In this document: positions 1-64,000 of the stretch, one piece after another
Numbering within the stretch: position 1 is the first letter of the stretch
How the letters are laid out: the number at the start of each line of letters is the position of its first letter
Origin: a virus
Lineage: Duplodnaviria; Caudoviricetes
Strand: one strand, 5' to 3'
DNA length: 64,000 nucleotides
IMG/VR virus record: IMGVR_UViG_3300021425_003554
Translations under genes and position numbers: made by a program
Notes under the pieces: model-generated
Seen by the model: only the letters and a program-made list of their open reading frames with translations
Told to the model about the DNA's origin: nothing
The model's database searches: none

Positions 1-1
1 T

Positions 2-490
2 GTACACAACGAGGGTAGTGAGACTCCGAATTCGGACTTCACACTGGCTGACATCAGATGTAACATCATTGAAGCGACAGCAACAACGGCTCAATACGCC
101 GACATCGCTGAAAGATTTGAAGCAGATGCAGAAATAGAAGCAGGCGCAGTAGTCATGTTGGGTGGTACAGCGGAAATCACAGAAACTAGTCAAGAATTAT
201 CAGACAGAGTTTTTGGTGTTATTTCAACTCAACCAGCATACATGATGAACAATGCGGCAGGTAGCAACGCAACTCACCCATTTGTGGCAATGACAGGTAG
301 AACTCCAGTGAGAGTTACAGGTCAAGTCAGCAAAGGTGACAGATTAGTAAGTTCATCTATCAAAGGTACTGCTAGAGCAGTAGTAGAAGGTGAAACAATC
401 AACCCATTCCACGTGATTGGTAGAGCTTTGGAAGACAAGTTCACTAATGAAATTGGTTTGGTAAATTGTGTTGTTAGAACAAACAACTAA
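2..490 (+). CDS. C-terminal part of a tail fibre/structural protein with peptidase-G2-like chaperone domain (5' end outside window)
   Basis: Frame is open from position 2; QYADIAERFEAD..GAVVMLGG..VFGVISTQPAYMMN..VAMTGRTPV..KGDRLVSS is the typical C-terminal module of T4-like fibre proteins. Confidence 0.75.
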   Translation, partial: VHNEGSETPNSDFTLADIRCNIIEATATTAQYADIAERFEADAEIEAGAVVMLGGTAEITETSQELSDRVFGVISTQPAYMMNNAAGSNATHPFVAMTGRTPVRVTGQVSKGDRLVSSSIKGTARAVVEGETINPFHVIGRALEDKFTNEIGLVNCVVRTNN

Positions 491-517
491 TAAGTAATAC
501 TAATTCCTAAGTAGTTT

Positions 518-545
518 AAAGGGCGGCCTTTGTGTCGCCCTTTTC
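518..545 (+). terminator. Rho-independent terminator
   Basis: aaagggcggc-ctttgt-gtcgcccttt hairpin followed by T tract, after the stop codon. Confidence 0.8.
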
Positions 546-644
546 ATTTATAATAACTAAATACACGTACAGTTTGGCCCACTATGTAATAGGGCTCTCG
601 AAACATATGTTTCGTGATATAAAATTATAAAAGGAGTACCTTGT

Positions 645-2825: not shown

Positions 2826-2826
2826 A

Positions 2827-2857
2827 TTGACAGATTTCCTTTTTCGTGTTATAAATA
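2827..2857 (+). promoter_or_regulatory. Composite sigma70 / T4-type late promoter
   Basis: TTGACA(2827)-17 nt-TGnTATAAA, overlapping TATAAATA(2850-2857). Confidence 0.7.
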
Positions 2858-2905
2858 TAATTGACACGACAATACACACACAAACACAAACAAAGGAGAA
2901 ATGTT

Positions 2906-3292
2906 ATGTCAACTAAAACAAGAAACGGCTATGAAATCAGAGCCGACCTATTAGGACTAGCCAAAGATATTGCTCAGTTCAACTATTCAATTAAACTTAA
3001 CGAATTTGAAATGTCATCTAAAAAAGATGGTGATCAAGTTGTGACTGAGTTTAAATTCCCAACTATCAGTGCGGAAGACATCATTGAAAACGCAAAGAAA
3101 TTCAATGAGTTCGTAACTAATGGTTCGTCTGTGGCAGAAAACACCCAGATGTTGATGGAAGGCGTGAAGAAGTTCAACGAAAACGTTCAGAATGCGTGGA
3201 AACCTGAAAATATCCAATCTAATTGGAAAAAGTACCAAGAGGATGTACAAAAACTTTCTAGTGCTTTTTTTAACGGAGTGTCTAACAAATAA
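2906..3292 (+). CDS. Hypothetical phage protein (NGYEIR motif)
   Basis: SD aaaggag precedes ATG 2906; hairpin follows the stop. Confidence 0.65.
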   Translation: MSTKTRNGYEIRADLLGLAKDIAQFNYSIKLNEFEMSSKKDGDQVVTEFKFPTISAEDIIENAKKFNEFVTNGSSVAENTQMLMEGVKKFNENVQNAWKPENIQSNWKKYQEDVQKLSSAFFNGVSNK

Positions 3293-3301
3293 TCAGTAAA
3301 A

Positions 3302-3326
3302 TACTGCTGGGTCCTGCCCAGCAGTA
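3302..3326. terminator. Hairpin terminator
   Basis: tactgctggg-tcctg-cccagcagta perfect 10-bp stem. Confidence 0.65.
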
Positions 3327-3339
3327 TACTTTTCATTTC

Positions 3340-3558
3340 ATGAAACAGTTTTTATTGATCGCGTTGTTTATAACCTTTGTAGGATGTACAGGAGTAAACG
3401 ACTGCCGAGTTTCTCCCACAGTTAGTATCGAACAAAAAAAAGAAGTATCTTCTGAACAATCAGATAAAGAAAAAACAAGTAATCAATCACCCACGGAACT
3501 AATAAAAGACAGTATTGAAAATGCTCAACCGGGCGGTCAATTGAAATGTTCTTTTTAG
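3340..3558 (+). CDS. Putative lipoprotein
   Basis: MK + hydrophobic stretch + FVGC lipobox-like motif. Confidence 0.55.
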   Translation: MKQFLLIALFITFVGCTGVNDCRVSPTVSIEQKKEVSSEQSDKEKTSNQSPTELIKDSIENAQPGGQLKCSF

Positions 3559-3986
3559 ACTCTTTTTCTATTTTCTAGATGTGCTTGTTCCACAAGCGAT
3601 TTATTTTGACCGTAATAAGGAACTGCGTGTCCCACATCACACATTAGTTGGTTGACTGATTTACCGTCACACCACACGTCGCCAAGTATTCGACCAAATT
3701 TACCTGTTTCAGAACTTTTGTAAGTTTTAATTGTAATTTTTTTTGCTTTTTTAATTTGTTCTTGTAAAAATTTTTTGGATTTTAAACCGTATTTCTTTTC
3801 TTCTTTGTCTCTGGTCCTTGATTCTGGAGTATCTATGCCAAATAGTCTAACTCTTTGAGCAAACAATATATCAAAACCCATGTCTAACACTACGTCAATA
3901 GTATCTCCGTCCACAACTTTTGTGACTCTTTTAACTCTGTAACTGAAATCTGTTGGATCTCCCAACTTTGGTGCTTTTGTTGGCAT
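3555..3986 (-). CDS. Staphylococcal nuclease (SNase/thermonuclease)-like protein
   Basis: VVDGDTIDV, VRLFGIDTPE and GKFGRILG motifs; start coupled to the upstream stop (TAATG). Confidence 0.85.
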   Translation of the reverse strand: MPTKAPKLGDPTDFSYRVKRVTKVVDGDTIDVVLDMGFDILFAQRVRLFGIDTPESRTRDKEEKKYGLKSKKFLQEQIKKAKKITIKTYKSSETGKFGRILGDVWCDGKSVNQLMCDVGHAVPYYGQNKSLVEQAHLENRKRV

Positions 3987-4129
3987 TATAAATTTCCTTC
4001 CCACTTGCCGTATCGAGTGCTTTTCTTTTTTTTCTTTTTCTTTTTCTTTTTATTAGAAGAACGATTATCCTCAAAACTCATGATATTTTGTACAGATCTA
4101 TCTAACATTTTTTTGATAAAATTAATCAT
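3986..4129 (-). CDS. Unannotated 47-aa basic protein with a run of 10 Lys
   Basis: MINFIKKMLDRSVQNIMSFEDNRSSNKKKKKKKKKKSTRYGKWEGNL*; TAAATA 6 nt upstream; stop overlaps the SNase ATG. Confidence 0.55.
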   Translation of the reverse strand: MINFIKKMLDRSVQNIMSFEDNRSSNKKKKKKKKKKSTRYGKWEGNL

Positions 4130-4146
4130 ACAATCTATTTATTGTT

Positions 4147-4575
4147 TTAAACAATAAGGTCTAAAATTGTTTGTAATTTACCTTTGATTGCTTTGTTGTT
4201 CAAGGTGTTTCTTAGACCCGCATGAAGATTCTTTGGCCAGTATTCAAAAGCACACCAGGCATAGGAGTTGTGTTCGTGATTAAGTTTTGGTAAAAACTCA
4301 TCTGCTATGGCTATCACGAATGTATTAAAGAAAAATTTCTGATCGTTCGAGGTGAATAATTCCAGGGGTATGACTTTTTTGAATTGAGGTAATGCTCCGA
4401 CTTCTTCCTCAATTTCTCTTTTTAACCCCTCAAAAACCATTTCATAAGATTTGGCTCTACCACCAACAAGTCCCCATTGTCCTTTGGTTTTACTATCGTT
4501 TCTTTGTAAAAATAAAAAACGTTTGGTGTTGACGGCATAAAATAATGCACCAGAACATACAATATTATCTTGCAT
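4147..4575 (-). CDS. NUDIX hydrolase
   Basis: Nudix box GGRAKSYEMVFEGLKREIEEEVG. Confidence 0.85.
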   Translation of the reverse strand: MQDNIVCSGALFYAVNTKRFLFLQRNDSKTKGQWGLVGGRAKSYEMVFEGLKREIEEEVGALPQFKKVIPLELFTSNDQKFFFNTFVIAIADEFLPKLNHEHNSYAWCAFEYWPKNLHAGLRNTLNNKAIKGKLQTILDLIV

Positions 4576-4583
4576 AATTTATA

Positions 4584-5963: not shown

Positions 5964-5964
5964 C

Positions 5965-7404: not shown

Positions 7405-7412
7405 ATCATACA

Positions 7413-9432: not shown

Positions 9433-9541
9433 ATTGTATATTTACGTTCCCTATATAGGTACCTTTATTTCGTGTAGTTTTAAACGTTTTTAACTAAAAA
9501 CCAATAAATACATTCAGTTACACTTGCAAGGAGAACAAAAT

Positions 9542-12500
9542 ATGGCATTAACATCACCAGGAGTAGAAGTTTCAGTTATAAATGAAAGTTTTTACGTACC
9601 AGCAGATGCGGGTACAACTCCACTATTAATAGTAGCGACAGCACAAGACAAATTAAATGGAGCAGGAACTAGTACTGCGGTTGGAACACAAACTGCCAAC
9701 GCAAACACAGTTTACCTAGTATCGTCACAAAGAGAATTAACAGAAACATTTGGTGATCCAAAATTTTATAGTGATTCATCAGGAAATGCATTAAACGGTT
9801 ACGAAATAAATGAATACGGATTACAAGCCGCTTATTCATTTTTAGGAGTGGCCAACAGAGCATTTGTATTAAGAGCAAACGTAAATTTATCAGAACTTAT
9901 CGGTTCTGCAACAGCACCAACATCTAAACCAAACAACGGAACATATTGGTTCGACCTAACATCAAATGTCCCTGGTTTATTTGAGTGGAATAACACAAAC
10001 TCAACTTTTACAGCAATCTCTCCAATCTACATAACATCAGTTGATGATTTAGTTGGCGGAGTTTCAACAGGTGCACCAAAAACATCAATTGGTACAATCG
10101 GTTCTTATGCAATTAATACAACTCATGTAACTAACAAAACTTATTATAAAACATCCGGCAATGCTTGGGTGCAAATTGGATCTAGTGCTTGGAGCACAGC
10201 CATTGGTGCGAATGCATCATTTGTACAGTCTCCACACACATCTATTCCACAATGGAAAACAGCAGGTAACATTCCAACTGGTTCTGTTTGGTTTAAGACT
10301 ACCACTCCAAACTCTGGTGCTGACGTAAGTGTAAAACTTTACAACAGTGCATCAGATTCTTGGTCAGTAGTTGATGCTCCTCTTTATGCAAATAACCACG
10401 CGGCGATTTATGGACTTGATCCTATAAATGGCGGAACTGGCATTTCAGCAGGAACACTTTACACACAATACAATGTAGGCGAACAATCAACATTGGGTGC
10501 ATTTGATGTAACTCCAAAATTACAAGACTTCCAAATTTTTAGATACGAAGGTGGAGCAACAACAATTACTTCTAATAATACAACACCATCATTCACTAGC
10601 GGAAACACTTTTGCAATACAAGAATCAAGAAAAGCATCGGGTTCTCTAGCAGGCTGGGACGGTTCAACGGTGGTCAGTCTAGGTGGAACTAGTGCAGACG
10701 ATTTTGTTGCGGCGGTAAATGGTGCTGGATTAACTAACATTTCAGCAGAAAAACTTTCAACTGGTGCAATCAAAATGACACACGCACTTGGCGGCGAATT
10801 TAGAATGTGGCAAATAACAGGAACTGCTCTAGATGATGCAGGTTTTGGTGTTGCTAATGGACACGCATATGGAACATACACAGCAAATTCATCAACACTA
10901 GTTGATAATTTATACGATGCTCCGGCAGGTTACACTGAAGATTCAACACAACCAGCAATGGTGGTTGCTTCAAATTGGAAACGTTTATCATATGTTGCAT
11001 CAACATCGGCTCCGACAAACGAGCCAGCAGATGGTACATTATGGTACAACACAAACTTAGAAGCAGATATCATGGTTCACAACGGAACAACATGGGTTGG
11101 CTACTTGGACAGCACGTCTCCATATTACAATGCAGATGCGGCACAACAAACAGATCCAAATGGTCCGATCTTCTCAGCATCAGAACCAACTACACAATCA
11201 GATGCGACAGCATTAAAAATTGGTGATGTTTGGATTGATACTAGCGACTTAGAAAACTATCCAAGAATTTATAGATATCAATCAACAGCAGACGGAAATG
11301 CTTTTGTATTAATTGATAACACAGATCAAACTACTGGTGATGGTATAGTGTTTGCCGATGCCAGATCAAACACAGCGGCAACTAAATCAGACTCGTCATC
11401 AACAGGCGGTGCACCATCTGATAGTTCGATCAAAGATCTTTTAAGTGATAACTTCTTAGATCCAGATGCACCAAATCCATCATTATATCCTCAAGGTATC
11501 TTATTGTTTAACACAAGAAGATCTGGATACAATGTTAAAGAATACAAAAATAATCATATTACAACTGCAAAATATCCTGGATCAGGATCTTCGGGTAAAG
11601 GTAACATCAGATATAACAGCAACGAATCAGTTTCTGGTTATTTCAAAGACAGATGGGTTACTAAATCGACTAACAGTGCCAACGGTGCTGGAACATTTGG
11701 AAGAAAAGCAGTTAGAAAAGTAATTACTGAACAAATAAAATCAGAGATTAACACCAACCAAGCAATCAGAGAAGATCAAAGAGGATTCAATGTTATTGCT
11801 TGTCCGGGATATCCTGAAGTTATTTCAGAAATGATTAATCTAAATACTGACAGAAATAATACAGCATTTATCGTAGGTGATACTCCGATGAGATTAGCAG
11901 GAACATCAACTGCTATTTCAAATTGGGCTAACAACACAGCAGTAGCATCAGATAACGGTGAAGATGGTCTTGTATCAAGTTCGGATTATTTAGGAGTATT
12001 TTATCCTTCAGGAAGAACTACATCTAACAATGGATCATCAATCGTTGTACCACCATCTCATATGATTTTGAGAACATTGGCAAATAATGATAATGTTGCG
12101 TTTCCATGGTTTGCACCAGCAGGTACAAGACGTGGTATCATCGACAATGCAACAGCAGTAGGATACATTAACTCAGCATCGGGAGAATTTGAAACAATCT
12201 CGTTGACAGAATCTGTTAGAGATTCAATGTTTACTGCAAAAATTAATCCAATTACATTCTTTTCAGGAACAGGAATAGTAAACTTTGGTAATTTAACTAA
12301 AACATCTAGTTCGTCTGCTTTAGATAGAATTAACGTTTCTAGATTAACAGTTTATCTAAGATCACAACTTGATAAACTTGCCAAACCTTTCATTTTTGAA
12401 CCAAATGATGAATTGACTAGAAATGAAATTAAAGGATCGATCGAGTCTTTCTTATTAGAATTACTTGGACAAAGAGCACTATACGATTTCTTAGTAGTTT

Positions 12501-12646
12501 GTGACGAGACTAACAACACAGCAACTAGAATTGATAGAAATGAATTGTATGTGGATATTGCAATTGAACCAGTTAAATCGGTTGAATTTATTTACATACC
12601 TTTAAGAATCAAAAACACAGGGGAGATAGCAAACCTAGGTAACTAA
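9542..12646 (+). CDS. Tail sheath protein (gp18-like)
   Basis: MALTSPGVEV start; PWFAPAG, RINVSRL, FIFEPND and EFIYIPLR sheath motifs; SD aaggag. Confidence 0.95.
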   Translation: MALTSPGVEVSVINESFYVPADAGTTPLLIVATAQDKLNGAGTSTAVGTQTANANTVYLVSSQRELTETFGDPKFYSDSSGNALNGYEINEYGLQAAYSFLGVANRAFVLRANVNLSELIGSATAPTSKPNNGTYWFDLTSNVPGLFEWNNTNSTFTAISPIYITSVDDLVGGVSTGAPKTSIGTIGSYAINTTHVTNKTYYKTSGNAWVQIGSSAWSTAIGANASFVQSPHTSIPQWKTAGNIPTGSVWFKTTTPNSGADVSVKLYNSASDSWSVVDAPLYANNHAAIYGLDPINGGTGISAGTLYTQYNVGEQSTLGAFDVTPKLQDFQIFRYEGGATTITSNNTTPSFTSGNTFAIQESRKASGSLAGWDGSTVVSLGGTSADDFVAAVNGAGLTNISAEKLSTGAIKMTHALGGEFRMWQITGTALDDAGFGVANGHAYGTYTANSSTLVDNLYDAPAGYTEDSTQPAMVVASNWKRLSYVASTSAPTNEPADGTLWYNTNLEADIMVHNGTTWVGYLDSTSPYYNADAAQQTDPNGPIFSASEPTTQSDATALKIGDVWIDTSDLENYPRIYRYQSTADGNAFVLIDNTDQTTGDGIVFADARSNTAATKSDSSSTGGAPSDSSIKDLLSDNFLDPDAPNPSLYPQGILLFNTRRSGYNVKEYKNNHITTAKYPGSGSSGKGNIRYNSNESVSGYFKDRWVTKSTNSANGAGTFGRKAVRKVITEQIKSEINTNQAIREDQRGFNVIACPGYPEVISEMINLNTDRNNTAFIVGDTPMRLAGTSTAISNWANNTAVASDNGEDGLVSSSDYLGVFYPSGRTTSNNGSSIVVPPSHMILRTLANNDNVAFPWFAPAGTRRGIIDNATAVGYINSASGEFETISLTESVRDSMFTAKINPITFFSGTGIVNFGNLTKTSSSSALDRINVSRLTVYLRSQLDKLAKPFIFEPNDELTRNEIKGSIESFLLELLGQRALYDFLVVCDETNNTATRIDRNELYVDIAIEPVKSVEFIYIPLRIKNTGEIANLGN

Positions 12647-13374: not shown

Positions 13375-14772
13375 ATGCCTAGTATTAATAATTTTTTAGA
13401 AGGATTCTCAAATGGTCTTCCAGGAATGAAAGACTATCGCCACGCAACAAGATTATATCTTGATAATAACTTTAAATTAGCACCAAAACAAAAATTTTTA
13501 TTTCATGTTGTTTTTGATATAGACAATACTACTGTCGGGGGCCGACAATTTTCACAGGATGAAAAGTTTGCTCTCAATATGCTAGTTAAGACCTGTGAAT
13601 TGCCAAAATATGATATGAACCTAGAAGAAAAAATTCAATATAACAAAAAAGTTTATGTGGGTACTAGAATTGTTTACAGACCGGTCACTATAAATTTTCA
13701 CGATGACAATGCCGATACTGTTAATGCTTTTTGGAAAAGATACTACGAGTATAACATAGCAGATTCTCAAACAATACCGGTTGCGGGCCAATACACATAT
13801 ACCAAAGACGATTTTTACAAGACAAACAGAGTGGCAACACAGTACGGCATGGATAATGCTCAGCAGAGAGGAAAACCTTTGTTGAGAAGCATACAAATTT
13901 TTGCCATGCATCAAAAAAGATTTACTTCATTTTTATTAGTAAATCCTGTTATAGGATCTTTCAGTCATGATGATCTAGACAATGCAGACGGTGGCGGAAT
14001 AATGGCAAACTCTATGCAAGTGTTTTACGAAACTGTTTTGTATGGTGCAGGCACAGTTAAATCGCCGAACATGGCCACTGGGTTTGCTGATTTATATTAC
14101 GACCTTGAGCCATCTCCTTTAAGTGTGTTGGGAGGAGGCACAACTTCTATATTCGGAGAAGGCGGAATAGTCGACGGAATTGGTGGGGTTCTTGATAGTG
14201 TTCAAAATGGCGACGTGTTAGGAGCCATTATAAAAGCAAATAACACATATCAAAATGCTAAAAAAATAAAAGCCAAAGACGCTGTCAAAGAAGAACTCAA
14301 AGGAATAGTAAAAGAAACTGTGCAGGACGTTGCAAAAACTGCCGGAACAATTAACAATCCGATCGGAAACTTCAGTGTAGGAACAGCGGCGGTGGCGGCT
14401 ATCGGTACTGTTGCTTTGGCAAAAGGTAATACATCTACTACATCAAAAAATAGTGTTCAAACAGTTATTTCAAACCCTGTTATTGATACAACAAATTATC
14501 TGAGTTCAACGGAATCATTTAATCTATTACAAAACAACACGCAGGCACAGGATAAGGTTGCATCCTTTATCTATTATCAAAAAATAGGATCTGCTCAAAA
14601 TTTAACAATTGCTCAGAGTGATGTGATCTATAATGGGTTATCAGATGCACAAAAAAATGTATGGAGAAATAGAGCAATCAACGATATAACGAGACTGGTC
14701 ACTGAAGGATACATACAAATAAATAGGCAAACAAACGATATATCTGTGTCGGCTGAGAAAGTGAATTTATAA
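13375..14772 (+). CDS. Tail-tube-like / baseplate tube initiator protein
   Basis: N-half has tube-fold motifs (PK.KFLFHV, Y.PVTINFHDD, LVNPVIGSFSHD). Confidence 0.6.
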   Translation: MPSINNFLEGFSNGLPGMKDYRHATRLYLDNNFKLAPKQKFLFHVVFDIDNTTVGGRQFSQDEKFALNMLVKTCELPKYDMNLEEKIQYNKKVYVGTRIVYRPVTINFHDDNADTVNAFWKRYYEYNIADSQTIPVAGQYTYTKDDFYKTNRVATQYGMDNAQQRGKPLLRSIQIFAMHQKRFTSFLLVNPVIGSFSHDDLDNADGGGIMANSMQVFYETVLYGAGTVKSPNMATGFADLYYDLEPSPLSVLGGGTTSIFGEGGIVDGIGGVLDSVQNGDVLGAIIKANNTYQNAKKIKAKDAVKEELKGIVKETVQDVAKTAGTINNPIGNFSVGTAAVAAIGTVALAKGNTSTTSKNSVQTVISNPVIDTTNYLSSTESFNLLQNNTQAQDKVASFIYYQKIGSAQNLTIAQSDVIYNGLSDAQKNVWRNRAINDITRLVTEGYIQINRQTNDISVSAEKVNL

Positions 14773-17935: not shown

Positions 17936-19528
17936 ATGGCATATGTATCATTAGATTCAGACCAAATAAAAAAAGCAAATAAGAAACACAAATACACCCA
18001 CGATCAAGTGTTGAAACTTGAAAAGTGTATGGATCCAAAAACAGGTCCTCTATATTTCATGAAAGAATTTATAAAAATACAACACCCTACCAAGGGATCA
18101 ATGCCTTTCAACCCTTATCCGTACCAGGAAAGATTGATCAACAGTTACAACGATCATAGATTTTCGATAGCAATGCTACCGCGGCAGACAGGAAAGACCA
18201 CCTGTGCGGCGGGTTACTTGATTTGGTATGCTATGTTTATACCAGATTCACAGATATTGATCGCGGCACACAAATATGCGGGTGCCTCAGACATCATGTC
18301 CAGGGTAAGATACGGTTATGAAATGTTGCCAAGTTGGATCAAAGCAGGAGTCACACAGTACAACAGGAACTCCATAGAATTTGATAACGGTTCCAAAATT
18401 ATGGCCACTACCACAACTGAGAACACAGGACGGGGTATGTCCTTGACAATGGTTTATTGTGATGAGTTTGCTTTCGTGCAACCACCCGAAAAGGCCAAAG
18501 AATTTTGGACATCACTGTCTCCGACTCTATCAACAGGAGGAAAATGTTTAATCACTTCAACGCCAAACTCCGACGAGGATCAGTTCGCTTTAATTTGGAA
18601 GGAAGCACTCAAAAGACATGACGAATTTGGTAACGACAATGTAGTAGGAACCAACGGATTTTATGCAATGAAGGCACACTGGTCTGAGCATCCTGACAGA
18701 GACGAATCATGGGCGGCGGCTGAAAAATCTAGAATAGGTGAGGAAAGATTTAGACGAGAACACGATTGTGAATTCTTGATTTACGACGAAACTTTGATCA
18801 ACAGTATCAAACTTGTAGAACTTGAAGGAAAAGATCCAATCTGGAACCAAGGACAGGTTAGATGGTATGCCAAACCAAAACCAAAACACACATACATGGT
18901 TGCACTGGATCCATCATTAGGTACCGGTGGGGATTTTTCTGCCATACAGGTATTTGAATTGCCAACATTTAAACAGGTTGCTGAATGGCATCATAATACC
19001 ACACCTGCCAATCAACAAATTAGAATACTACAAAGCATAACAAAATACATACACGACACAATAATAGAACAGGACTCTACTGCTACGCCTAGTATTTTTT
19101 ATTCCATGGAAAACAATACTTTGGGAGAAGCGGCGTTACAAAGAGTAATGGACATCGGCGAAGAAAATATCATGGGTCAATTCCTTTCGGAACCTATCAG
19201 AAAAGGACATCGTAGAAAATTCAGAAGAGGATTCAATACAACAGCCAAGCACAAGATAGATGCCTGTGCCAAATTTAAAGAACTAGTTGAAAATAATAAA
19301 ATGGAACTCAACTCTAAACCTTTAATATCAGAATTGAAAAATTTTGTGGCTTCCGGTGTATCATACAAGGGCAAACCCGGGGAACACGACGACTTGGTTT
19401 CGGCTTGTCTACTGACTACTAGGATGATGAAAGTGTTGGCAGACTTTGATCCTAAAATATTTGAGCAATGGACAAATAGAAGTTCGGAATGGACTGTTCC
19501 TATGCCAATTTTTGCAAATCTAAATTAG
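17936..19528 (+). CDS. terL: Terminase large subunit (gp17-like)
   Basis: PRQTGKTT Walker A, YCDEFAFV Walker B, ITSTPN, ALDPS.GTGGD, HDDLV. Confidence 0.97.
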   Translation: MAYVSLDSDQIKKANKKHKYTHDQVLKLEKCMDPKTGPLYFMKEFIKIQHPTKGSMPFNPYPYQERLINSYNDHRFSIAMLPRQTGKTTCAAGYLIWYAMFIPDSQILIAAHKYAGASDIMSRVRYGYEMLPSWIKAGVTQYNRNSIEFDNGSKIMATTTTENTGRGMSLTMVYCDEFAFVQPPEKAKEFWTSLSPTLSTGGKCLITSTPNSDEDQFALIWKEALKRHDEFGNDNVVGTNGFYAMKAHWSEHPDRDESWAAAEKSRIGEERFRREHDCEFLIYDETLINSIKLVELEGKDPIWNQGQVRWYAKPKPKHTYMVALDPSLGTGGDFSAIQVFELPTFKQVAEWHHNTTPANQQIRILQSITKYIHDTIIEQDSTATPSIFYSMENNTLGEAALQRVMDIGEENIMGQFLSEPIRKGHRRKFRRGFNTTAKHKIDACAKFKELVENNKMELNSKPLISELKNFVASGVSYKGKPGEHDDLVSACLLTTRMMKVLADFDPKIFEQWTNRSSEWTVPMPIFANLN

Positions 19529-19530
19529 CA

Positions 19531-20091
19531 ATGAAAAAAAATTTATATTATAAAGTTGGCAACGAAGGAAATGTAGACTTTAATAATAGATGGAACGATT
19601 TAGAAAAAATACTAGATTTAAAAAACACAGATACTGTATTAGATATTGGATGTGCTGAAGGATTAATATCTATTGAAGTTGCTAAAAAAGTTAAACACGT
19701 AGAAGCATTTGAATTAGAACTTCATAGAGTCAACGTGGCAAAAGAAAATGCTGAAAAAAACAAAGTAAAAAACATATTTTTTTCAGTTGCATCATTTTTG
19801 AATTTTAACTATCAAACATATAATAAAGTACTATGTTTAGGAGTGTATCACAAGATACGACAAGCCAATGCAAGAATTCCCGCATTAGAAAGAATGTTTC
19901 GTTCTTGCACAGATCAATTTTACATCAGAGTACCGGTATTAGACGGAACTGTGCCTATTGATAGGGGTATAGAGGAAAAAGAAATAATAGACACTGCGTT
20001 TAGATCTGGGTTTGATCTAGTTGTTAAGACCAAGCAAAGACCGAATCACGGTTCTATTTTTAAATTTGCAAAACGAATAAATACAGTATGA
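19531..20091 (+). CDS. Class I SAM-dependent methyltransferase
   Basis: VLDIGCAEG motif I; acidic residue ending beta-2 (EAFE). Confidence 0.8.
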   Translation: MKKNLYYKVGNEGNVDFNNRWNDLEKILDLKNTDTVLDIGCAEGLISIEVAKKVKHVEAFELELHRVNVAKENAEKNKVKNIFFSVASFLNFNYQTYNKVLCLGVYHKIRQANARIPALERMFRSCTDQFYIRVPVLDGTVPIDRGIEEKEIIDTAFRSGFDLVVKTKQRPNHGSIFKFAKRINTV

Positions 20092-22393: not shown

Positions 22394-23101
22394 GTGTCTA
22401 AACTTAAATTTTCAAATATCGTTGATAACGAACATTTTTGTATACACGTAGAAGATCTATTATCTGAAGAGAAACTGCAACACTTGGAAGAGTTGCATGA
22501 ACAACACAAAAACAAAATAAAAAAAAGTAATCATAATACAAATAAGTACAAAGTATCAGGAACTACTTGGGACTTCAATGCAGAAGCATATTCTTATAAT
22601 GACACAAATAATATTTTAAAAAAAGAAATACAAAACATTTGGTGGAATTTTTTACTTGAACATACTTTAGAAAAAAAATTAGAATTATTAAACACAATCA
22701 GATATGTAGAACAGAACGATCCTCAAGGTTTACATACCGATATTGATATCAATAAAGGTATAAGTTTTTTAATACCTTTAGATTCTGATATTAATAATAC
22801 TTTGTATACATTAATTTTTAAAAAAAATATATCCTACAATATTTTAAAAAATAATCCTTCAGCGATGAAGGATTATTTAAATAGTTTAAAAGACCGTACA
22901 CCTTCATTAGATAAGAAATATAATTTAAGACATATTACAAACAGAAATATAGAAAAAGCAGAGTTATTGTATGGATTTAGATATAAAAGAGGTGATGCTA
23001 TAATATTCAATAGACATTTATTACATACTTCAACTTTTTGGAAAAACAAAGATTACCAAAGAAAGGATTATTTCTTTGGACACGCAAATTTTTGCCAATA
23101 A
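22394..23101 (+). CDS. 2OG-Fe(II) oxygenase-like protein
   Basis: HTD..ISFLIPL..GDAIIFN..LLH facial triad; GAGG SD before the GTG; very AT-rich. Confidence 0.6.
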   Translation: MSKLKFSNIVDNEHFCIHVEDLLSEEKLQHLEELHEQHKNKIKKSNHNTNKYKVSGTTWDFNAEAYSYNDTNNILKKEIQNIWWNFLLEHTLEKKLELLNTIRYVEQNDPQGLHTDIDINKGISFLIPLDSDINNTLYTLIFKKNISYNILKNNPSAMKDYLNSLKDRTPSLDKKYNLRHITNRNIEKAELLYGFRYKRGDAIIFNRHLLHTSTFWKNKDYQRKDYFFGHANFCQ

Positions 23102-26734: not shown

Positions 26735-28000
26735 ATGTTTGAAAAAGAAAAAAAATATTTCCCAATAAAAACAAAAACGGCTTGCCAACTCAAGTGGAAT
26801 TGGTCTACAATTATTTTGACCGAAGGAACGACCAGTAGTTGTCACAGATGTCTCAAAGTACCTTTGGACAAAGACAATTTTGATAATTTTCATAACTTGC
26901 CACACAAGATAAAAGAACGCGAAATTATGTTACAAGGTAAATGGCCCACAAAAGAAAACGGTGGTTCGGGACATTGCACATACTGTAAAGATATTGAGGA
27001 CTCCGGAGGGTTGAGTGATAGACAGCATCATTTAAACATACCTAACCAAGTTCCGGAAGAATTAGAAAATGATACCACACTTACCAAAATAACTCCAAAG
27101 GTTTTAGAAATTTTTCTAAATAAAACGTGTAATCTTAAATGCACTTATTGTAATACAAGAAACAGTACACAATGGAATATTGAATCAAAAAAATTTGGTC
27201 CACTTAAAGACACAAACGGAAATGAATTTTCTGGATATACTTTCAGTGAAAGTGTGCCCGAACATCGACAACTTTTTGAAAAATCCATGGATTGGATTAA
27301 AAGAAACGGTAGTAAATTAACTAGACTACATTTACTGGGTGGGGAAACTTTTTATCAATCAGAACTACAAGAAGTAATTGATACATTATCGTCACTGAAA
27401 AATCCAAACCTAGAACTTAATATTGTTTCTAATTTAATGGTTAAAGAAAATACTTACAAAAACTATATAGAGCAAATCAAAAAACTTTGCATAGATAGAA
27501 ACATTGGTAGATTTGATCTCACTGTCAGCATAGATGGTTGGGGCAAGGAAGCCGAGCTCGCTAGATTTGGTTTGAAGTTGGATCATTGGGAAAAACTATT
27601 CCAATATACGGTCAATCAAAAATGGATTTTTTTGAATACCAATCAAGTCATTACTGCTTTAACCATGCGTACTATTCCGGATTTAATTAATATAATACAA
27701 AAATATAGAAAAATAAGAACTATAAACCAAGAAATTACATTTGTTGATGGAAGAGAATGGATGCATCCTAAAATTTTTGGGAAAAAATTTTGGGAAAACG
27801 ATATCAAAAAAATATTAGATATCATGCCAGAAGATAATGAAAATAATAAAAATGCCAAAAAATATATGGCAGGTTGTTTAAACTCTTTACCAGATGAACA
27901 AAATAAAAAGTTAATACAAGAATTAAAATATTTTTTAGATCAATTAGATCGTAGAAGAAACACAAACTGGAAAGAAGTCTATCCTTATTTAGATATATAA
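26735..28000 (+). CDS. Radical SAM protein with N-terminal SPASM/twitch-like Cys cluster
   Basis: CNLKCTYC; ACQLKW..SCHRC; LLGGETF; SIDGWG. Confidence 0.9.
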   Translation: MFEKEKKYFPIKTKTACQLKWNWSTIILTEGTTSSCHRCLKVPLDKDNFDNFHNLPHKIKEREIMLQGKWPTKENGGSGHCTYCKDIEDSGGLSDRQHHLNIPNQVPEELENDTTLTKITPKVLEIFLNKTCNLKCTYCNTRNSTQWNIESKKFGPLKDTNGNEFSGYTFSESVPEHRQLFEKSMDWIKRNGSKLTRLHLLGGETFYQSELQEVIDTLSSLKNPNLELNIVSNLMVKENTYKNYIEQIKKLCIDRNIGRFDLTVSIDGWGKEAELARFGLKLDHWEKLFQYTVNQKWIFLNTNQVITALTMRTIPDLINIIQKYRKIRTINQEITFVDGREWMHPKIFGKKFWENDIKKILDIMPEDNENNKNAKKYMAGCLNSLPDEQNKKLIQELKYFLDQLDRRRNTNWKEVYPYLDI

Positions 28001-47616: not shown

Positions 47617-47767
47617 TAGACATAGTTTATGATAAATAGTGTCTGTAAAAAAAATGAAAAAACAACATTTCATAAAAGTTACCATATAGAAAAAATCAAT
47701 TAAAATTCCCAGAAGTTTAAAGAATTTGTGAATGGCTTTACAGCCACACAAAAATAAGGAGAAAACT

Positions 47768-48706
47768 ATGAAAATAACAAAGAAAAAAATAGGCCTAGGT
47801 GTAGCGATTATTATTGCACTTGGCATATTATGGTCGGTTTTAAAACCGGCTCCAGCAGAAGCGGCTGATATGAAAGTTTATGGTTCATTAAACTATATGC
47901 TTTCTAATAACGAGGACGCTAACGGCGTGGCGACATCGAAAGCGGAGAACAACGGTTCTTCTATCGGTGTTGATTTCTCGAGCAACCTATCAGAAGGTAT
48001 CGACGGCTTTGCCAAATTAGAAGTGGACATCGATGCAGATGATTCTGGCTCAACACCATTTGATTCAAAACTAGCATATGCTGGTGTTGACATGGGCGAT
48101 GCAGGTATGCTGTCAGCAGGTAGACAAAACTCTGTATTCAAAGGTGCAGTAACATCTAAAACAGATGTGTTCCCAGAATATGGTAATAGTGCATCACAAA
48201 AACTGTTCAGTAGAGATTCACACACAGTAATCTACTCTAACACATTTGGTGCAATACAGTTGGATAACTTGATCAAAGTTGACGGAACAACTGGTAAATC
48301 AGGTGTTGATGTTTATGAAACTGCGGCTTCTATGGATGTAAGTGATGAACTAAACGTAGGTATTGCTTACTCAGATGACAAAGTAAATTCGATCGAGTAC
48401 AAAGGTGCGGGTTTAAATTTTGATTTGAACGATGCTGTTACAATTGGTTACAATTATACAATTAAATCAGTTGAGTCAACATCATTAGACACTACTGCGA
48501 ATGAACTAGTTGGTTCATACACCATTGGACAAACAACATTTTCAGCAGGTTACGGTGAGATCGAAGATGGTAACAAGTATCATACGTATGGTGCCGAGAA
48601 AAAAATTGGTAGCAACTTTAGTATGTACGCCGGTTACGAAATCACTGACGTACCATCAGGTACAGACACAAACGACATGGCAGTAGGAATGAAATTTACA
48701 TTCTAA
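47768..48706 (+). CDS. Gram-negative outer-membrane porin
   Basis: Signal peptide ending AEA-A; VYG, S.IG, KLE, YAG, LSAGRQ; amphipathic strands; C-terminal Phe. Confidence 0.85.
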   Translation: MKITKKKIGLGVAIIIALGILWSVLKPAPAEAADMKVYGSLNYMLSNNEDANGVATSKAENNGSSIGVDFSSNLSEGIDGFAKLEVDIDADDSGSTPFDSKLAYAGVDMGDAGMLSAGRQNSVFKGAVTSKTDVFPEYGNSASQKLFSRDSHTVIYSNTFGAIQLDNLIKVDGTTGKSGVDVYETAASMDVSDELNVGIAYSDDKVNSIEYKGAGLNFDLNDAVTIGYNYTIKSVESTSLDTTANELVGSYTIGQTTFSAGYGEIEDGNKYHTYGAEKKIGSNFSMYAGYEITDVPSGTDTNDMAVGMKFTF

Positions 48707-54966: not shown

Positions 54967-55042
54967 TGGTGGAGGTAGAGGGATTCGAACCCACGACCCC
55001 TTGAATGCAAATCAAGTGCTCTCCCAACTGAGCTATACCCCC
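54967..55042 (-). tRNA. tRNA-Ala(TGC)
   Basis: Cloverleaf, TGC anticodon, G3:U70 identity pair, encoded CCA. Confidence 0.95.
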
Positions 55043-56704: not shown

Positions 56705-56718
56705 GTAAATACTTTCCT

Positions 56719-57960: not shown

Positions 57961-57972
57961 AAATCAAAATTT

Positions 57973-58578: not shown

Positions 58579-58587
58579 AATACTCTA

Positions 58588-58616
58588 ATTGTAACATTTT
58601 TTTTCTCACCTGTCAA
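58588..58616 (-). promoter_or_regulatory. sigma70 promoter for clpP
   Basis: Minus strand TTGACA-17 nt with TGn-TACAAT; ATG only 10 nt downstream. Confidence 0.7.
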
Positions 58617-58640
58617 CACACAACTTAAATATAACTACTA

Positions 58641-59492
58641 ATGAAAACAATTATAACCTGTGCTGTAACTGGTGGTAAAACTGATCCAAACTCCACACCA
58701 TACTTGCCAATAACACCGGAACAAATTGCACAATCCTCGTTGGATGCCGCGGCGGCGGGTGCTTCCATAGTACACATACACGTTCGAAATCCAGATAACG
58801 GTAAACCGTCTATGGACAAAGATCTTTACCAAAAAACTGTTGACTTGATAAGAAACAAGAACGAAAATCTTATTATTAATCTCACAACAGGCCCGGGTGC
58901 TGTGTATAAGCCATTAACAAATGATAATTCTGGATTAATGGATGCTCAAACAAGAGTGGAACACATAGATAGTATACGTCCTGATATATGTAGTCTAGAC
59001 TTTAACACCATGATGCAAGATGACGACGGTGTTAGGATAAACTCTATTCCTGTCGTTGCTGAGATGCTTTTGAAAATACAGTCATATGGCACACTTCCGG
59101 AATTTGAAATTTTTGACAGCGGTGATCTCAGAATTGCAAAAAAACTCATTAGTGACGGACTTACGAGCAGACAACCCATATGGCAAATAGTGACGGGAGT
59201 CAAATACGGATGGGAGTCTTCCATCAACACAATTGATTATGCGTTAAAAATTTTACCGGAAGACTCAATTTGGTGTGCTCTGGGAGTAGGCAAGATGTCT
59301 TTGCCTATAGCAGAATATGTTCATCAAAAAGGTGGCCATGTTAGGGTTGGCATGGAAGATAACATCTACCTCGAAAAAAATGTGCTCGCGAAATCAAATG
59401 CAGAGCTAGTAGAACAATGCGTATCTTCGATAGAAAAAACAAATGGCTCTGTGGCTTCCGTCTCTGAAGCAAGAACAATATTAAAAATTTAG
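58641..59492 (+). CDS. Beta-keto acid cleavage enzyme (BKACE / 3-keto-5-aminohexanoate cleavage family, DUF849)
   Basis: IITCAVTG, P.TPEQIA, GASIVHIHVR, LTTG, PEFEIFD, RVGMEDN. Confidence 0.92.
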   Translation: MKTIITCAVTGGKTDPNSTPYLPITPEQIAQSSLDAAAAGASIVHIHVRNPDNGKPSMDKDLYQKTVDLIRNKNENLIINLTTGPGAVYKPLTNDNSGLMDAQTRVEHIDSIRPDICSLDFNTMMQDDDGVRINSIPVVAEMLLKIQSYGTLPEFEIFDSGDLRIAKKLISDGLTSRQPIWQIVTGVKYGWESSINTIDYALKILPEDSIWCALGVGKMSLPIAEYVHQKGGHVRVGMEDNIYLEKNVLAKSNAELVEQCVSSIEKTNGSVASVSEARTILKI

Positions 59493-59497
59493 TCAAA

Positions 59498-59526
59498 AAA
59501 AAAGGGCCGCCGAAGCGACCCTTTTT
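59498..59526. terminator. Bidirectional terminator
   Basis: A-tract + agggccgc-cgaa-gcgaccct + T-tract between convergent genes. Confidence 0.8.
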
Positions 59527-59546
59527 AAAAGTTGATTTAAAACTAA

Positions 59547-60035
59547 CTAGGCTTTCTTGATTCTATCAAGTAATCCAGGTGAAAATGTTGGTTCGAACTT
59601 TTCGTACACCGTTTTAGTCTTTTCCTTGAACTCTGCTGTTTCTTCCGGGGTAAGCTCGTGAACGTTAACACCCTCTGATTTCAATCTAGCCTTGGCTTCT
59701 TCTCCATCAGCGATCGTTGTTTCACGTTCTTTTCTTCCGGCATCAATTGCGGCCGCTTTTAAAACAGCCTTGACTTCTGGAGATAATTTCTCATAGAAAT
59801 CATTACGCATGATCATGGTTGTTAAGAACAAACTGTGTTTCGTATCAATAACCGATTTGGTCACTTCGTTCTGGTCCAAAGGGTAAACTCTAGAGTAAAC
59901 TCCTTCTCCGCCTTCACATTTTCCTTCTTCGATTGCACCTTTTAGATCTTCTATTTCACAAACGTGTCTATCTGTGACACCTAGTGCTTTGAAGGTTTCT
60001 TGGGCAACCGGGTTTCTGTTAGTTCTAAGTTTCAT
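59547..60035 (-). CDS. dctP: TRAP solute-binding protein-like, C-terminal half
   Basis: MKLRT (conserved Arg), TKHSLF, FYEKLSPEVKAVL..AA, G..VHELTPEE. Confidence 0.8.
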   Translation of the reverse strand: MKLRTNRNPVAQETFKALGVTDRHVCEIEDLKGAIEEGKCEGGEGVYSRVYPLDQNEVTKSVIDTKHSLFLTTMIMRNDFYEKLSPEVKAVLKAAAIDAGRKERETTIADGEEAKARLKSEGVNVHELTPEETAEFKEKTKTVYEKFEPTFSPGLLDRIKKA

Positions 60036-60038
60036 TTA

Positions 60039-60509
60039 TTACGCAGTTAAGTCACCTAGTTTGCTAACTTTTTTGTTAGAAACTACGTTTCTGAAACCAC
60101 CTGAGTAAGTAAATGCCATACCTCTAACGTTAGATTTTTCAGTGATTTTATTTAATAATTCTTCACCTACTTCACCTTCTAACACTCTAGTTGCATGATC
60201 ATGATCTGCAAATATGAAAGGCATTTCTAATGCTAACATATCTTGTTCATAATGCTCTGCTAACCATGTAGTGTACATTTGAGACATTTCAATTTTACCT
60301 TGTTCCATCAAGTCTAATAAGTCGTGTTTAGTAACTAATACACCGTTGTTGTATTTGTCACTGTACTCTCTTAATGTCATGATTTCAACTTCGATTTTTT
60401 CTGCAGTCTGAGCTCTGTTCACGAAATCTTGGAAATCTTTAGCCGCTCTTACGAATAAAGATAAAGGCTCGTGTGCAATAACCCATCTGATTTTAGTTGT
60501 TTTTGTCAT
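60039..60509 (-). CDS. dctP: TRAP solute-binding protein-like, N-terminal half, no signal peptide
   Basis: LEMPFIFADHDHA..VLEGEVG, SGGFR; SD aaggaag; ends in TAA TAA in frame with the C-half ATG. Confidence 0.8.
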   Translation of the reverse strand: MTKTTKIRWVIAHEPLSLFVRAAKDFQDFVNRAQTAEKIEVEIMTLREYSDKYNNGVLVTKHDLLDLMEQGKIEMSQMYTTWLAEHYEQDMLALEMPFIFADHDHATRVLEGEVGEELLNKITEKSNVRGMAFTYSGGFRNVVSNKKVSKLGDLTA

Positions 60510-60637
60510 TGTGTTTCTTCCTTTTTATTTAACGTTAAATCAAGGCTGTGTTTACATTCTTGACTTACTGATATTTACCAATTAAATCAATGATAATATG
60601 TGTTTTCTGGCTAGTTTTAAATAATATACGCATATAA

Positions 60638-61903
60638 CTATCCTTTGTACTCGCTCAGCATTTTATCATAAAAATTATCAACATCATGATTTGGTTGCCA
60701 ATATTGATCAAATAAGAGGTCCGGTTGTGTTATTTTTAATGCCGGTTGTTGTCCAGCAATCTTATTTTTATACTTGTAATACTCGGTCATCTTAGAATAG
60801 TCGAAAATATATTTTTTAACCAAAGATTTGTGTTTGGTCATGTCTGCTGTTGGAATAAGTGACTTTAAATTAGTATAGGACCACTGCTGGAACTTGTCTG
60901 TGTTGAAAAAAGTATTTTTAGAGAAAAATTTTTGTTTTTCAAAAGATATATGTTCTCCGCTGTTATTGTATAAAAACGGTCGTTGGCAACTGAACTCCCA
61001 TTTGAAATTGAAATATGTCCACCAATACCAATCTGCTATACTAGTGAGATAATCATTGTGTTTGTTTTCAATAATATTATTCGAGAGTTTTTCACAAAAC
61101 CAATCAACGCAGTTTTTTGAAAACTCCGAGATATGCTTGTCAGAAAGATAGTTTTCTGGCAAACTTATTTTATAAAAATTGGTTTTGTTTTCTAGAATTT
61201 GTATCAATGGTTTTTTTATTAGATCCATATTTTTTTGCCAGGATTCGTGGTGAACTCCTTGACGTATAGCCATTTTCATTCTGCTTATGCTGGGACCAAA
61301 CAAGCAGTCGGCTGGGTCTCCGTGTAATAGAATGTACTGATCTAGAAACTCGTTTGTGACTAAAAAGAAAACAGAACTTCGAATTGCTAGTTTTCTGTAA
61401 ATAAATTTCATAAAAAATTCTGGATGTTCAAAAATAGAATCGGTATTACAAATGACCTCTATCATGTCGTGTTCGTTGTTGGGTATGTTTTTCAACAACG
61501 AAACCAATACTGATGTGGAATCAATTCCACCACTCCACATCACTGCCAGTTTCTTGTTGGAGTTCTTGGCCTCGTTGTACAACTCCATGGCTCGTGAATC
61601 ATAAATGTCCTCTAATTTATCATCGATGAATTTCAATTCGGGCATGGCATACAGTGGATTGCTGGGTGCGTTCCATGGATTATTAAAAGTACCCGATCGG
61701 GCTCGCCAGTCTGAAATACCTTGCATTAATTTATAAATCTGACCCCAGTACATACCATAAGGATTTTCTGGATACACAGACCTACTCAAAGGAAGATCAT
61801 ATCCCATGCTTAAAAAATTTGATACTGTATTAGATTTTGCAAATTTGTCTTTGACAGATTTGGGTAATGGAGAATTTTGGAACTTAACGATCTGTAATTT
61901 CAT
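60638..61903 (-). CDS. Asparagine-synthetase-fold ATP pyrophosphatase, paralog A
   Basis: VMWSGGIDST PP-loop; HGDPADCLFGP resembles the SGEGADELFGG motif; no glutaminase domain. Confidence 0.7.
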   Translation of the reverse strand: MKLQIVKFQNSPLPKSVKDKFAKSNTVSNFLSMGYDLPLSRSVYPENPYGMYWGQIYKLMQGISDWRARSGTFNNPWNAPSNPLYAMPELKFIDDKLEDIYDSRAMELYNEAKNSNKKLAVMWSGGIDSTSVLVSLLKNIPNNEHDMIEVICNTDSIFEHPEFFMKFIYRKLAIRSSVFFLVTNEFLDQYILLHGDPADCLFGPSISRMKMAIRQGVHHESWQKNMDLIKKPLIQILENKTNFYKISLPENYLSDKHISEFSKNCVDWFCEKLSNNIIENKHNDYLTSIADWYWWTYFNFKWEFSCQRPFLYNNSGEHISFEKQKFFSKNTFFNTDKFQQWSYTNLKSLIPTADMTKHKSLVKKYIFDYSKMTEYYKYKNKIAGQQPALKITQPDLLFDQYWQPNHDVDNFYDKMLSEYKG

Positions 61904-63808
61904 TTAATTTCTTGCTCAAAAAAAATCTTATATGTTCTATCATGCTGTGCTCTTGGATTAAGTCTTTATATAGATTTGGATTTTTTTGAAAAGAACTCAA
62001 ATTGTCAAATCCGTCTTCTAATAAAAAATATCGATAACGCGGACTCGTTGTGTTTTTTGTTTTTGATGTTTTATCTATCATGTCGTTAATAAAGTCTAGA
62101 ACACAGTCGTTGTTTGATATGTCTATTTTATTAAAAGAGTCGATTAATGATTTTGTAACATATTTTTGGTATTCGTGTAAATCTGCACTATGTCTATCGT
62201 TTAAATTTAGCTCTTGTTCAAATATTTTTTTTAATTCCTCACTATGATCTGGTGTGTCCACTAATAGTTTTAAAAAATTAAAAAATTCTTTTATTCCATT
62301 ATCTTTATCTCTAGTTGAATCTATTTTAAAATTTTTTATTGAATCTAACTGTATTTGAACAATTTCAAAAATTTCTAATATTATTTCTAATACGTCTTTC
62401 AATTTATAGGAAATATCTATGTCAGTTGGTGAAATCATGATACCGGATTCTTTGGCATTATGCAGTGACACTGTTTGCTCTAGACTTTGAATCATGGTAG
62501 TGTTGGCACCATATTTTACACAATTGGTATTGTCTATGTTATCTAATATTATATCTCTATACTCAGTATTATATTTTTTTTGGTAATCTATTGTTTGGGT
62601 TATGTTTAATACCGGATAGAAATATTTTTGCATTATGACAAATTGTACTTGTTTAATAGCAGAAAAATTTGTTGACACCACAACAAATTTATTAGCGGCC
62701 GGGTCTATTAATCCATATAACTCGTTTGACATAATGTTAATTATTACCCTTTATAACGATCCAGAAGCAATCTGGAAGTTTTAGCGACCCTATGATCGTC
62801 TTCATTCCAGGCGTGTCCTACCCACTCGTCGTCATAATAAAAAGGATTTATCGTGCCGTCACTATTCACATTCACAGTTCTCAAAACATTTACCGGAGTT
62901 TTGGTTCCTACTTTTGTTTTTGTACTGAAGTAAATTTCATTGTGATCAAACTCGTACACATATTTTTTTAAATCTATTTTGTGTTGTGATACATCTTTAG
63001 GTATCAAATTTTTTAAATTGGTGTAGGACCATTGCTGGAACTTGTCTGTGTTGAAGAATGTGTTCTTGGCAAATTGCTCTTGATGTCCGTGTGGTATCGA
63101 TTTCTTGTGCATGGGTATTCTTTTGCTATCTTGCTGTAAAGATCTCATATAAAAGAATGGACGTTGGCAACTGAATTCCCACTTGAAGTTGAAGTATTGC
63201 CACCACCAGAAATCTGCAACAGTTGATACATAATCAGATTGTCCGGCCTGTTGTATTGTTTGATTTATCTTGTCATAGTACCATTGATTGAAATCAAAAC
63301 CTAATTGATATGTTGACAGCAAAGGGTGTTTGATGTTTATTTTATGTATGCTGTGTGGTTTTAAATGGATGCCCGATGACTCATAATTTTTAACAGTTTG
63401 ATTATTGCTCGACGGCATATTGGGACCAAACAAGCAGTCGGCTGGGTCTCCGTGTAATAGAATGTACTGATCTAGGAAATCAACATCTAGTTTTATGTCT
63501 ATGTAATTTTTTTGTTTTAACTTGTTACTGATGTGTTTAAAATAAAAATTAACATTCTCATATATCGAGGAAGTTGTCATGATGACCTCTATCATGTCGT
63601 GTTCGTTGTTGGGTATGTTTTTCAACAACGAAACCAATACCGCAGTGGAATCAATTCCACCACTCCACATCACTGCCAGTTTCTTGTTGGAGTTCTTGGC
63701 CTCGTTGTACAACTCCGTGGCTCTCTCGTCCAGCAAGTCACTCATTTTGTCGTTGATGAATTTCAATTCGGGCATGGCATACAGTGGATTGCTGGGTGCG
63801 TTCCATGG
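61291..63808. repeat. Identical DNA blocks shared by the two paralogs, offset 2130 nt
   Basis: 61291-61345=63421-63475; 61452-61510=63582-63640; 61515-61586=63645-63716; 61625-61678=63755-63808. Confidence 0.9.
61884..62732 (-). CDS. Hypothetical protein
   Basis: 282-aa AT-rich ORF between the two paralogs. Confidence 0.6.
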   Translation of the reverse strand: MSNELYGLIDPAANKFVVVSTNFSAIKQVQFVIMQKYFYPVLNITQTIDYQKKYNTEYRDIILDNIDNTNCVKYGANTTMIQSLEQTVSLHNAKESGIMISPTDIDISYKLKDVLEIILEIFEIVQIQLDSIKNFKIDSTRDKDNGIKEFFNFLKLLVDTPDHSEELKKIFEQELNLNDRHSADLHEYQKYVTKSLIDSFNKIDISNNDCVLDFINDMIDKTSKTKNTTSPRYRYFLLEDGFDNLSSFQKNPNLYKDLIQEHSMIEHIRFFLSKKLNEITDR

Positions 63809-64000
63809 CGTGCTGAACGTGCCTCTGCGAGGACGAGTGTCATGAATTCCTAGCAATATCCTCGGAATAAGAATCCAAGCAACGGCAAAATTGTTTTTTT
63901 TCATTTCATTTAGGTATTGTTGGACCTCCCAGTTATCGACCATTCGAGATGATTTAATTTTTTTCACATGATCAACTGGATATTTTTTGCTGTGATAGTT
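62744..64000 (-). CDS. Asparagine-synthetase-fold ATP pyrophosphatase, paralog B (start probably beyond the window)
   Basis: Same SGGIDS and HGDPADCLFGP motifs; frame stays open to the window edge upstream of GTG 63967. Confidence 0.7.
   Translation of the reverse strand, partial: NYHSKKYPVDHVKKIKSSRMVDNWEVQQYLNEMKKNNFAVAWILIPRILLGIHDTRPRRGTFSTPWNAPSNPLYAMPELKFINDKMSDLLDERATELYNEAKNSNKKLAVMWSGGIDSTAVLVSLLKNIPNNEHDMIEVIMTTSSIYENVNFYFKHISNKLKQKNYIDIKLDVDFLDQYILLHGDPADCLFGPNMPSSNNQTVKNYESSGIHLKPHSIHKINIKHPLLSTYQLGFDFNQWYYDKINQTIQQAGQSDYVSTVADFWWWQYFNFKWEFSCQRPFFYMRSLQQDSKRIPMHKKSIPHGHQEQFAKNTFFNTDKFQQWSYTNLKNLIPKDVSQHKIDLKKYVYEFDHNEIYFSTKTKVGTKTPVNVLRTVNVNSDGTINPFYYDDEWVGHAWNEDDHRVAKTSRLLLDRYKG

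Follow-up and report, generated by a model that had tools for sequence, protein, structure and literature searches.

Clade-wide absence of GCWGC in uncultured jumbo phages points to avoidance of a site-specific endonuclease

The window and its missing word

The window analysed here, the whole 64,000-nucleotide stretch of the IMG/VR virus record IMGVR_UViG_3300021425_003554, is part of the genome of an uncultured coastal jumbo T4-like myophage with an estimated size of several hundred kb, and this report concerns the complete absence from it of the pentanucleotide GCWGC (GCAGC/GCTGC). The window consists of 94.5% coding sequence distributed over 73 open reading frames (ORFs). These encode a T4-type tail sheath (9524..12646, + strand; Pfam Phage_sheath_1C), which marks the window as T4-like myophage DNA, as well as the gp15 sheath stabiliser, the tail tube, a T4-type large terminase (TerL; 17936..19528, + strand; Pfam Terminase_6N/6C), gp32, UvsX and UvsY. 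A primase, a DnaB-type helicase, a UvsW-like helicase, ClpP, a BKACE enzyme, a porin and three tRNAs are also present, together with numerous tailoring enzymes, including radical S-adenosylmethionine (SAM)/SPASM proteins, glycosyl-, sulfo- and methyltransferases and TauD. The Pfam matches to phage genes agree with the implicit premise of an earlier note made from the sequence alone (the original prediction), namely that the window is phage DNA.

Among cultured phages, the nearest is Pseudomonas phage PA5oct (287 kb; TerL identity of 55.6%), which shares the gene order of the terminase region and is syntenic with the window over the sheath-to-terminase block; the rhizobial phages Phosso and Atu_ph07 (470–490 kb) are the next cultured relatives. 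With TerL as the marker for collecting relatives and building a tree, more than 598 related contigs were found in IMG/VR and more than 568 in JGI metagenomes, the longest of the latter being 88 kb. CheckV assigned a completeness of 5–17% to relative fragments of 17–75 kb, which points to genome sizes of several hundred kb. A 37.5 kb fragment (G001) is the nearest record, with 99% identity to positions 27537–64000 of the window. Across 17 studies, DNA of the window was found in metagenomes from marine, seawater, salt-marsh and estuary sources.

Neither strand of positions 1..64000 contains a single GCWGC. The expected number was 32.8 (s.d. 5.6) by dinucleotide shuffling, 44.7 by a maximal-order Markov model and 45.4 (s.d. 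4.0; minimum of 31 in 500 runs) by a codon shuffle in which synonymous codons of the 73 ORFs were swapped among positions encoding the same amino acid. The Poisson probability of observing no site is ~2e-20, and a Markov scan identified GCWGC as the sole 5-mer entirely absent at such an expectation. As many as 1013 positions in the window are one point mutation away from GCWGC. The original prediction had claimed a complete absence against about 30 expected sites and had called for an exact count against Markov and codon-shuffled nulls; the count gave 0 against 44.7 and 45.4, respectively, and the three nulls place the expectation at 33–45.

Of the 45 expected sites, 39 lie in the frame of Ala-Ala pairs, where the spelling is strongly constrained. 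The first codon of the 57 Ala-Ala pairs is GCG in 45 cases, GCC in 12 and GCA or GCT in none, whereas 72% of the Ala codons elsewhere are GCA or GCT. The preference for GCG/GCC despite the AT bias, noticed by the original prediction in a few examples, thus extends to 57 of 57 pairs. The pairs themselves are not depleted (57 observed versus 58.3 expected). GCSGC is over-represented (64 observed versus 15.7 expected), and the forced spelling of Ala-Ala accounts for 57 of the 62 in-gene occurrences, so that the excess is a by-product of the missing word. An Ala-rich run spelled GCG GCG ... (14386..14399, + strand), for example, has GCSGC at 14386 and 14395, and the Ala run at the start of the BKACE-family gene (58746..58756, + strand; GCC GCG GCG GC) has three overlapping GCSGC through forced spelling. 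The examples singled out beforehand, at 14386, 15733, 18713 and 58746–58752, are all on the GCSGC list. The accompanying claim of a W-specific avoidance holds in that GCSGC is common, but the W pattern alone does not name a W-specific enzyme, both because Ala-Ala has GCSGC as its sole spelling once GCWGC is forbidden and because GCGGC/GCCGC contains GGC, a context that can be shielded by a known phage guanine modification (PMC10484667).

Distribution and maintenance of the purge

The absence is a property of a clade rather than of the window alone. We compared 80 IMG/VR loci around TerL with protein identities of 82–100% and found that ~60 had exactly zero GCWGC and ~20 had normal counts. When the 62 purged sequences (61 IMG/VR loci and the window; 837 kb) were pooled, 0 sites were observed against 829 expected, while the 19 unpurged loci contained 558, near expectation. 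Similarly, 70 of 80 loci from JGI metagenomes were at zero (0 versus 325 expected) and the other ten were normal. Whole records gave the same division, with 0 sites against 74, 50 and 55 expected in purged records (51–64 kb) and observed/expected values of 131/179, 131/170 and 95/104 in unpurged ones. Among the 111 loci with at least 5 expected sites, 82 had an observed/expected ratio (O/E) of 0 and 29 had an O/E of 0.65–1.28, with none from 0 to 0.6. The purged clade spans 33–46% GC.

In a TerL tree rooted on PA5oct, the purged rows fall in a single clade of 63 rows that includes one nested unpurged row, and the trait requires two changes compared to 17.7 when the labels are shuffled. The unpurged rows are basal and partly freshwater, with five unpurged contigs coming from freshwater Lake Tanganyika (IMG ids in 10.1101/834861). 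The cultured relatives PA5oct, Phosso, Atu_ph07 and Vibrio phage 2.275.O are all unpurged and thus provide no host whose enzyme is known. The nested exception, L080, is an IMG/VR contig of 11987 bp and sister to L067, and it carries 15 GCWGC (17.7 expected) spread across the whole contig. Its placement within the purged clade identifies L080 as an apparent natural revertant. Between purged TerL genes, even in the closest pairs compared, 50–63% of four-fold degenerate sites differ, so active maintenance, and not inherited sequence identity, accounts for the zero. Selection therefore holds GCWGC at zero while the synonymous sites turn over.

The mode of removal was apparent from conserved TerL residues. 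Unpurged relatives carry GCWGC at such residues in all three frames, with spellings such as ATG CTG CCA (Met-Leu-Pro), GCA GCA (Ala-Ala) and GGG CAG CAT (Gly-Gln-His), and purged relatives have those same amino acids, always in other codons. TerL codon columns 80, 110, 181, 335, 399 and 482 contain GCWGC in unpurged and a synonymous spelling in purged sequences, and the change is either from the central W to S or a swap of the adjoining codon. The deamination products GTWGC/GCWAC show no excess (O/E of 1.01), which together with the W to S changes excludes methyl-cytosine deamination, and the synonymous recoding at conserved residues excludes a plain codon-usage effect. A sequencing or assembly artefact is ruled out, because the zero count recurs in contigs across dozens of independent samples and the proteins are preserved through recoding. 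With synonymous recoding in three frames, a zero that extends across a diverged clade and no excess of deamination products, the proposal that GCWGC has been under long-term selection is borne out.

The selecting agent

The pattern very probably reflects selection against an endonuclease that recognises GCWGC or GCAGC. By analogy with known cases of site avoidance, we favour, with considerably less assurance, a host restriction system as the probable owner of this enzyme. The lineage is under strong and continuing selection against any GCWGC, which is equivalent to GCAGC on either strand, and in such a model a double-strand endonuclease of GCWGC specificity (TseI/ApeKI type) or of GCAGC specificity (BbvI type, the target of BbvI being GCAGC) would kill any genome that carries a site. 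All potential sites have been erased by synonymous choice, with Ala-Ala recoded to GCG/GCC-GCN, CTG/CAG avoided between ..G and C.., and AGC/TGC avoided after NGC. The enzyme would most likely belong to the host population, in which Type II restriction-modification systems would be met often enough to make even a single site costly.

Restriction-site avoidance is a textbook phenomenon and is not new in itself, the GATC-free Staphylococcus phage K being one of the classic cases. It is documented across non-temperate dsDNA phages in the survey of Rusinov et al. 2018 (PMC6286503), and the window resembles those phages in that a known Type II word is missing beyond chance, sites are removed synonymously and AGCT and GCGC are depleted too. 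The purge in the clade of the window differs in being absolute and all-or-none (0 versus >1100 expected in >1.1 Mb of relatives), in persisting through synonymous saturation and in being absent from the cultured relatives. The contribution of this case lies in its scale and its sharpness: an abundant clade of uncultured aquatic phages with genomes of several hundred kb switches cleanly between zero and normal counts, and the zero state is kept through complete synonymous turnover with one nested reversion. GCWGC is the Type II target of TseI (PMC3643589) and of the ApeKI system (PMC8557920), and the recognition sequences of TseI/ApeKI (G^CWGC) and BbvI (GCAGC 8/12) are exactly the missing word (PMC3643589, PMC8557920). 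The TseI/ApeKI/BbvI-type specificity named by the original prediction is therefore matched by known targets, but the TseI/ApeKI and BbvI types are indistinguishable from sequence because GCAGC and GCTGC are reverse complements. An orphan GCWGC m4C methylase, M.AbaBS3I, has been described from freshwater Chloroflexi (PMC6329791). None of the source organisms of TseI, ApeKI and M.AbaBS3I (thermophiles and Chloroflexi) is plausible as a host.

We take host restriction as the default account for two reasons: purges of this kind have it as their documented cause (PMC6286503), and two classic Type II targets, AGCT and GCGC, are purged as well. The degree of the AGCT and GCGC avoidance varies among subclades, as expected under varying host restriction; AGCT in relatives is absent, present only with a flanking G or little depleted. 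In the window, all 18 surviving AGCT sites occur as GAGCT/AGCTC, a context expected by chance for ~32% of sites. Examples lie at 424, 20152, 26515, 55031 and 62209, the site at 55031..55034 being within a tRNA gene. HAGCTD occurs 0 times against 94.6 expected by codon shuffle, and G-flanked AGCT occurs 16 times against 38. The four surviving GCGC sites (144, 13332, 13344 and 16031) are all GGCGC/GCGCC, with 0 HGCGCD against 17.3 expected by codon shuffle. This G-flank rule, as read from the sequence, suggests a guanine modification that may shield AGCT and GCGC sites. Depletion of these words was also observed in cultured marine phages of SAR11 and Prochlorococcus: HTVC008M and P-SSM2 are depleted of AGCT, and HTVC008M, P-SSM2 and HTVC010P are all depleted of GCGC, with P-SSM2 having 0 GCGC against 11.8 expected and 53 AGCT against 141. 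Avoidance of AGCT and GCGC is thus widespread among marine phages, unlike avoidance of GCWGC.

The window offers two possible clues to the host, neither of which names a clear donor. The porin gene (47732–48706, + strand) is of the Gram-negative type and has 40% identity (E = 3e-55) to the porin of the SAR11 myophage HTVC008M, a match that mildly supports a SAR11 host. The family is phage-only, with no bacterial relatives and with all of the nearest Atlas clusters being viral. The BKACE enzyme is ~50% identical to proteins of Burkholderiales and points vaguely to that order.

Several points weigh against a host owner. That a nuclease is at work is inferred, and its assignment to the host is pure inference, since no GCWGC restriction system turned up anywhere. 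The distribution of the trait is strictly all-or-none and uniform over a clade of 33–46% GC from many samples, whereas AGCT avoidance in those very genomes is graded and patchy, from none to total. Restriction systems are usually strain-variable, so the constancy of the GCWGC purge would be explained at least equally well by an agent carried along with the phage. In addition, a flanking G spares AGCT and GCGC but never GCWGC (0 versus ~250 G-flanked sites expected), and the GCWGC agent thus behaves unlike the AGCT and GCGC agents. Should the host be SAR11, restriction by the host would be unlikely. SAR11 methylomes have been reported with GAWTC only (PMC8919816), and restriction systems are reportedly rare or strain-specific in SAR11 (PMC7029224; 10.64898/2026.04.03.716430). 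GCWGC counts are normal in the SAR11 phages HTVC008M and HTVC010P, as they are in the cyanophage P-SSM2, although these phages are not established to share a host with the window phage. Our literature search found no paper linking GCWGC avoidance to marine phages. The proposed use of the GCWGC purge as a host-prediction signature is not yet warranted; of the interpretation behind it, selection is strongly supported and the involvement of a nuclease is probably right, while the host part is unproven.

An enzyme carried by the phage itself would account for several of these features. In this alternative, which we consider less likely but a serious rival, a solitary GCWGC nuclease without a methylase would shred host or competitor DNA, with the site-free genome conferring immunity and serving as the mark of self versus host; its purpose would be to supply nucleotides, of which a genome of several hundred kb needs many, and to shut off the host. 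The strict distribution without intermediates, the single gain and single nested loss in the TerL tree, the constancy of the purge over many habitats as well as over the GC range while AGCT avoidance varies, and the lack of any tolerated context, even with a G flank, are all consistent with such an enzyme. Gene searches weigh weakly against it. Neither a sequence-specific nuclease nor a DNA methylase was recognised in the window with Pfam, PHROGs or PADLOC. The one nuclease identified there is a non-specific SNase homologue (3555–4004, − strand), which adjoins a NUDIX hydrolase (4147–4575, − strand), and the two are probably a non-specific nucleic-acid scavenging pair and not a site-specific enzyme. 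No TerL-centred gene tracks the trait: across 81 loci and seven whole records (37–75 kb), fragments that cover at most about a sixth (~17%) of the genome, no gene was common to purged and yet missing in unpurged sequences, and this negative result is weak. We know of little published precedent for self-avoidance without a methylase, which also counts against a phage-borne enzyme. Chloroviruses encode restriction-modification systems that degrade host DNA and provide a model for a virus-borne site-specific nuclease directed at the host, but they protect themselves through a partner methylase and not through a lack of sites, and such genes were not seen here. If the nuclease is nevertheless phage-borne, it would represent a little-documented way of telling unmodified phage DNA from host DNA.

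Individual candidates for such genes were tried and rejected. A small class I SAM methyltransferase (19489–20091, + strand), which overlaps the 3′ end of terL and is an optional insertion, was considered as a protective methylase; it is present in 4 of 61 purged loci and matches generic small-molecule/RNA methyltransferases. A C5 DNA methylase (PF00145), which might explain the normal counts of unpurged records, had no match in five unpurged fragments. A GIY-YIG (T4 EndoII-like) nuclease had its sole match among five records in an unpurged one, which speaks against it as the purging agent and against a phage-borne nuclease of this kind. The restriction-endonuclease-like protein of Vibrio phage 2.275.O has no homologue in the window or records. 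Complete purged and unpurged genomes constitute a natural experiment that could reveal the responsible gene, of host or phage, by simple association, and the L080 revertant could point to it given longer contigs.

The G-flank rule raises the alternative that the enzyme has GCNGC specificity (Fnu4HI/Bsp6I type) and that the phage shields GCGGC/GCCGC by guanine modification in GA/GGC, leaving only the unshieldable W form to be erased. The confinement of the surviving AGCT (18/18) and GCGC (4/4) sites to GA/GGC contexts matches the exact target motifs of DpdA from phage CAjan, which inserts dPreQ0 at GA and GGC (PMC10484667), and each GCSGC has GGC on one strand. This resemblance to 7-deazaguanine modification (PMC10484667, PMC6884629) is limited to AGCT and GCGC, as GCWGC is spared in no context and the DNA examined revealed no genes for DpdA or preQ0. 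In particular, neither the window ORFs nor the fragments of 19 relatives yielded a TGT/DpdA homologue (PF01702), most of the genome lying outside that DNA, and no preQ0 pathway genes were recognised, the sole related match being a weak QueC-like PHROG match at 62744–63967. GGCWGC is never tolerated even though its flanking G would be modified as in GGCGC. The GCGC half of the rule is weak, since G-flank enrichment of GCGC reaches 59–77% even in unrelated phages, and the presence of GCSGC requires no shield, since it is unavoidable without losing Ala-Ala. We consequently regard a shielded GCNGC target as improbable. Even less probable, and disfavoured here, is an origin without any nuclease, whether through codon-pair or mutational bias, such as deamination at methylated GCWGC, or because GCWGC mimics a regulatory or replication signal. 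Gaps in short words can arise from codon-pair bias, and nothing specific was found in its favour. The codon-shuffle null retains codon usage and still expects 45 sites, sister lineages that encode the same proteins at a similar composition keep normal counts, the substitution at the centre is of S for W rather than of T for C, with no excess of deamination products, and the avoidance extends over three frames and both strands.

Other observations in the window

A TRAP-type solute-binding protein gene of the DctP family (59547–60509, − strand) is present as two in-frame ORFs that are split by a tandem TAA TAA followed directly by ATG, and it represents either a pseudogene or a gene that is split deliberately. 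An ORF of 235 amino acids (22394–23101, + strand), located between a 740-amino-acid head protein and gp32, gave no match in Pfam, PHROG or PADLOC and lacks a counterpart in all 80 related loci. Two further words are under-represented. CTWAG occurs 24 times against 60.5 expected, and TAAATA/TATTTA occurs 65 times against 108.6 expected by the Markov model, perhaps because words resembling T4-type late promoters are avoided within genes.

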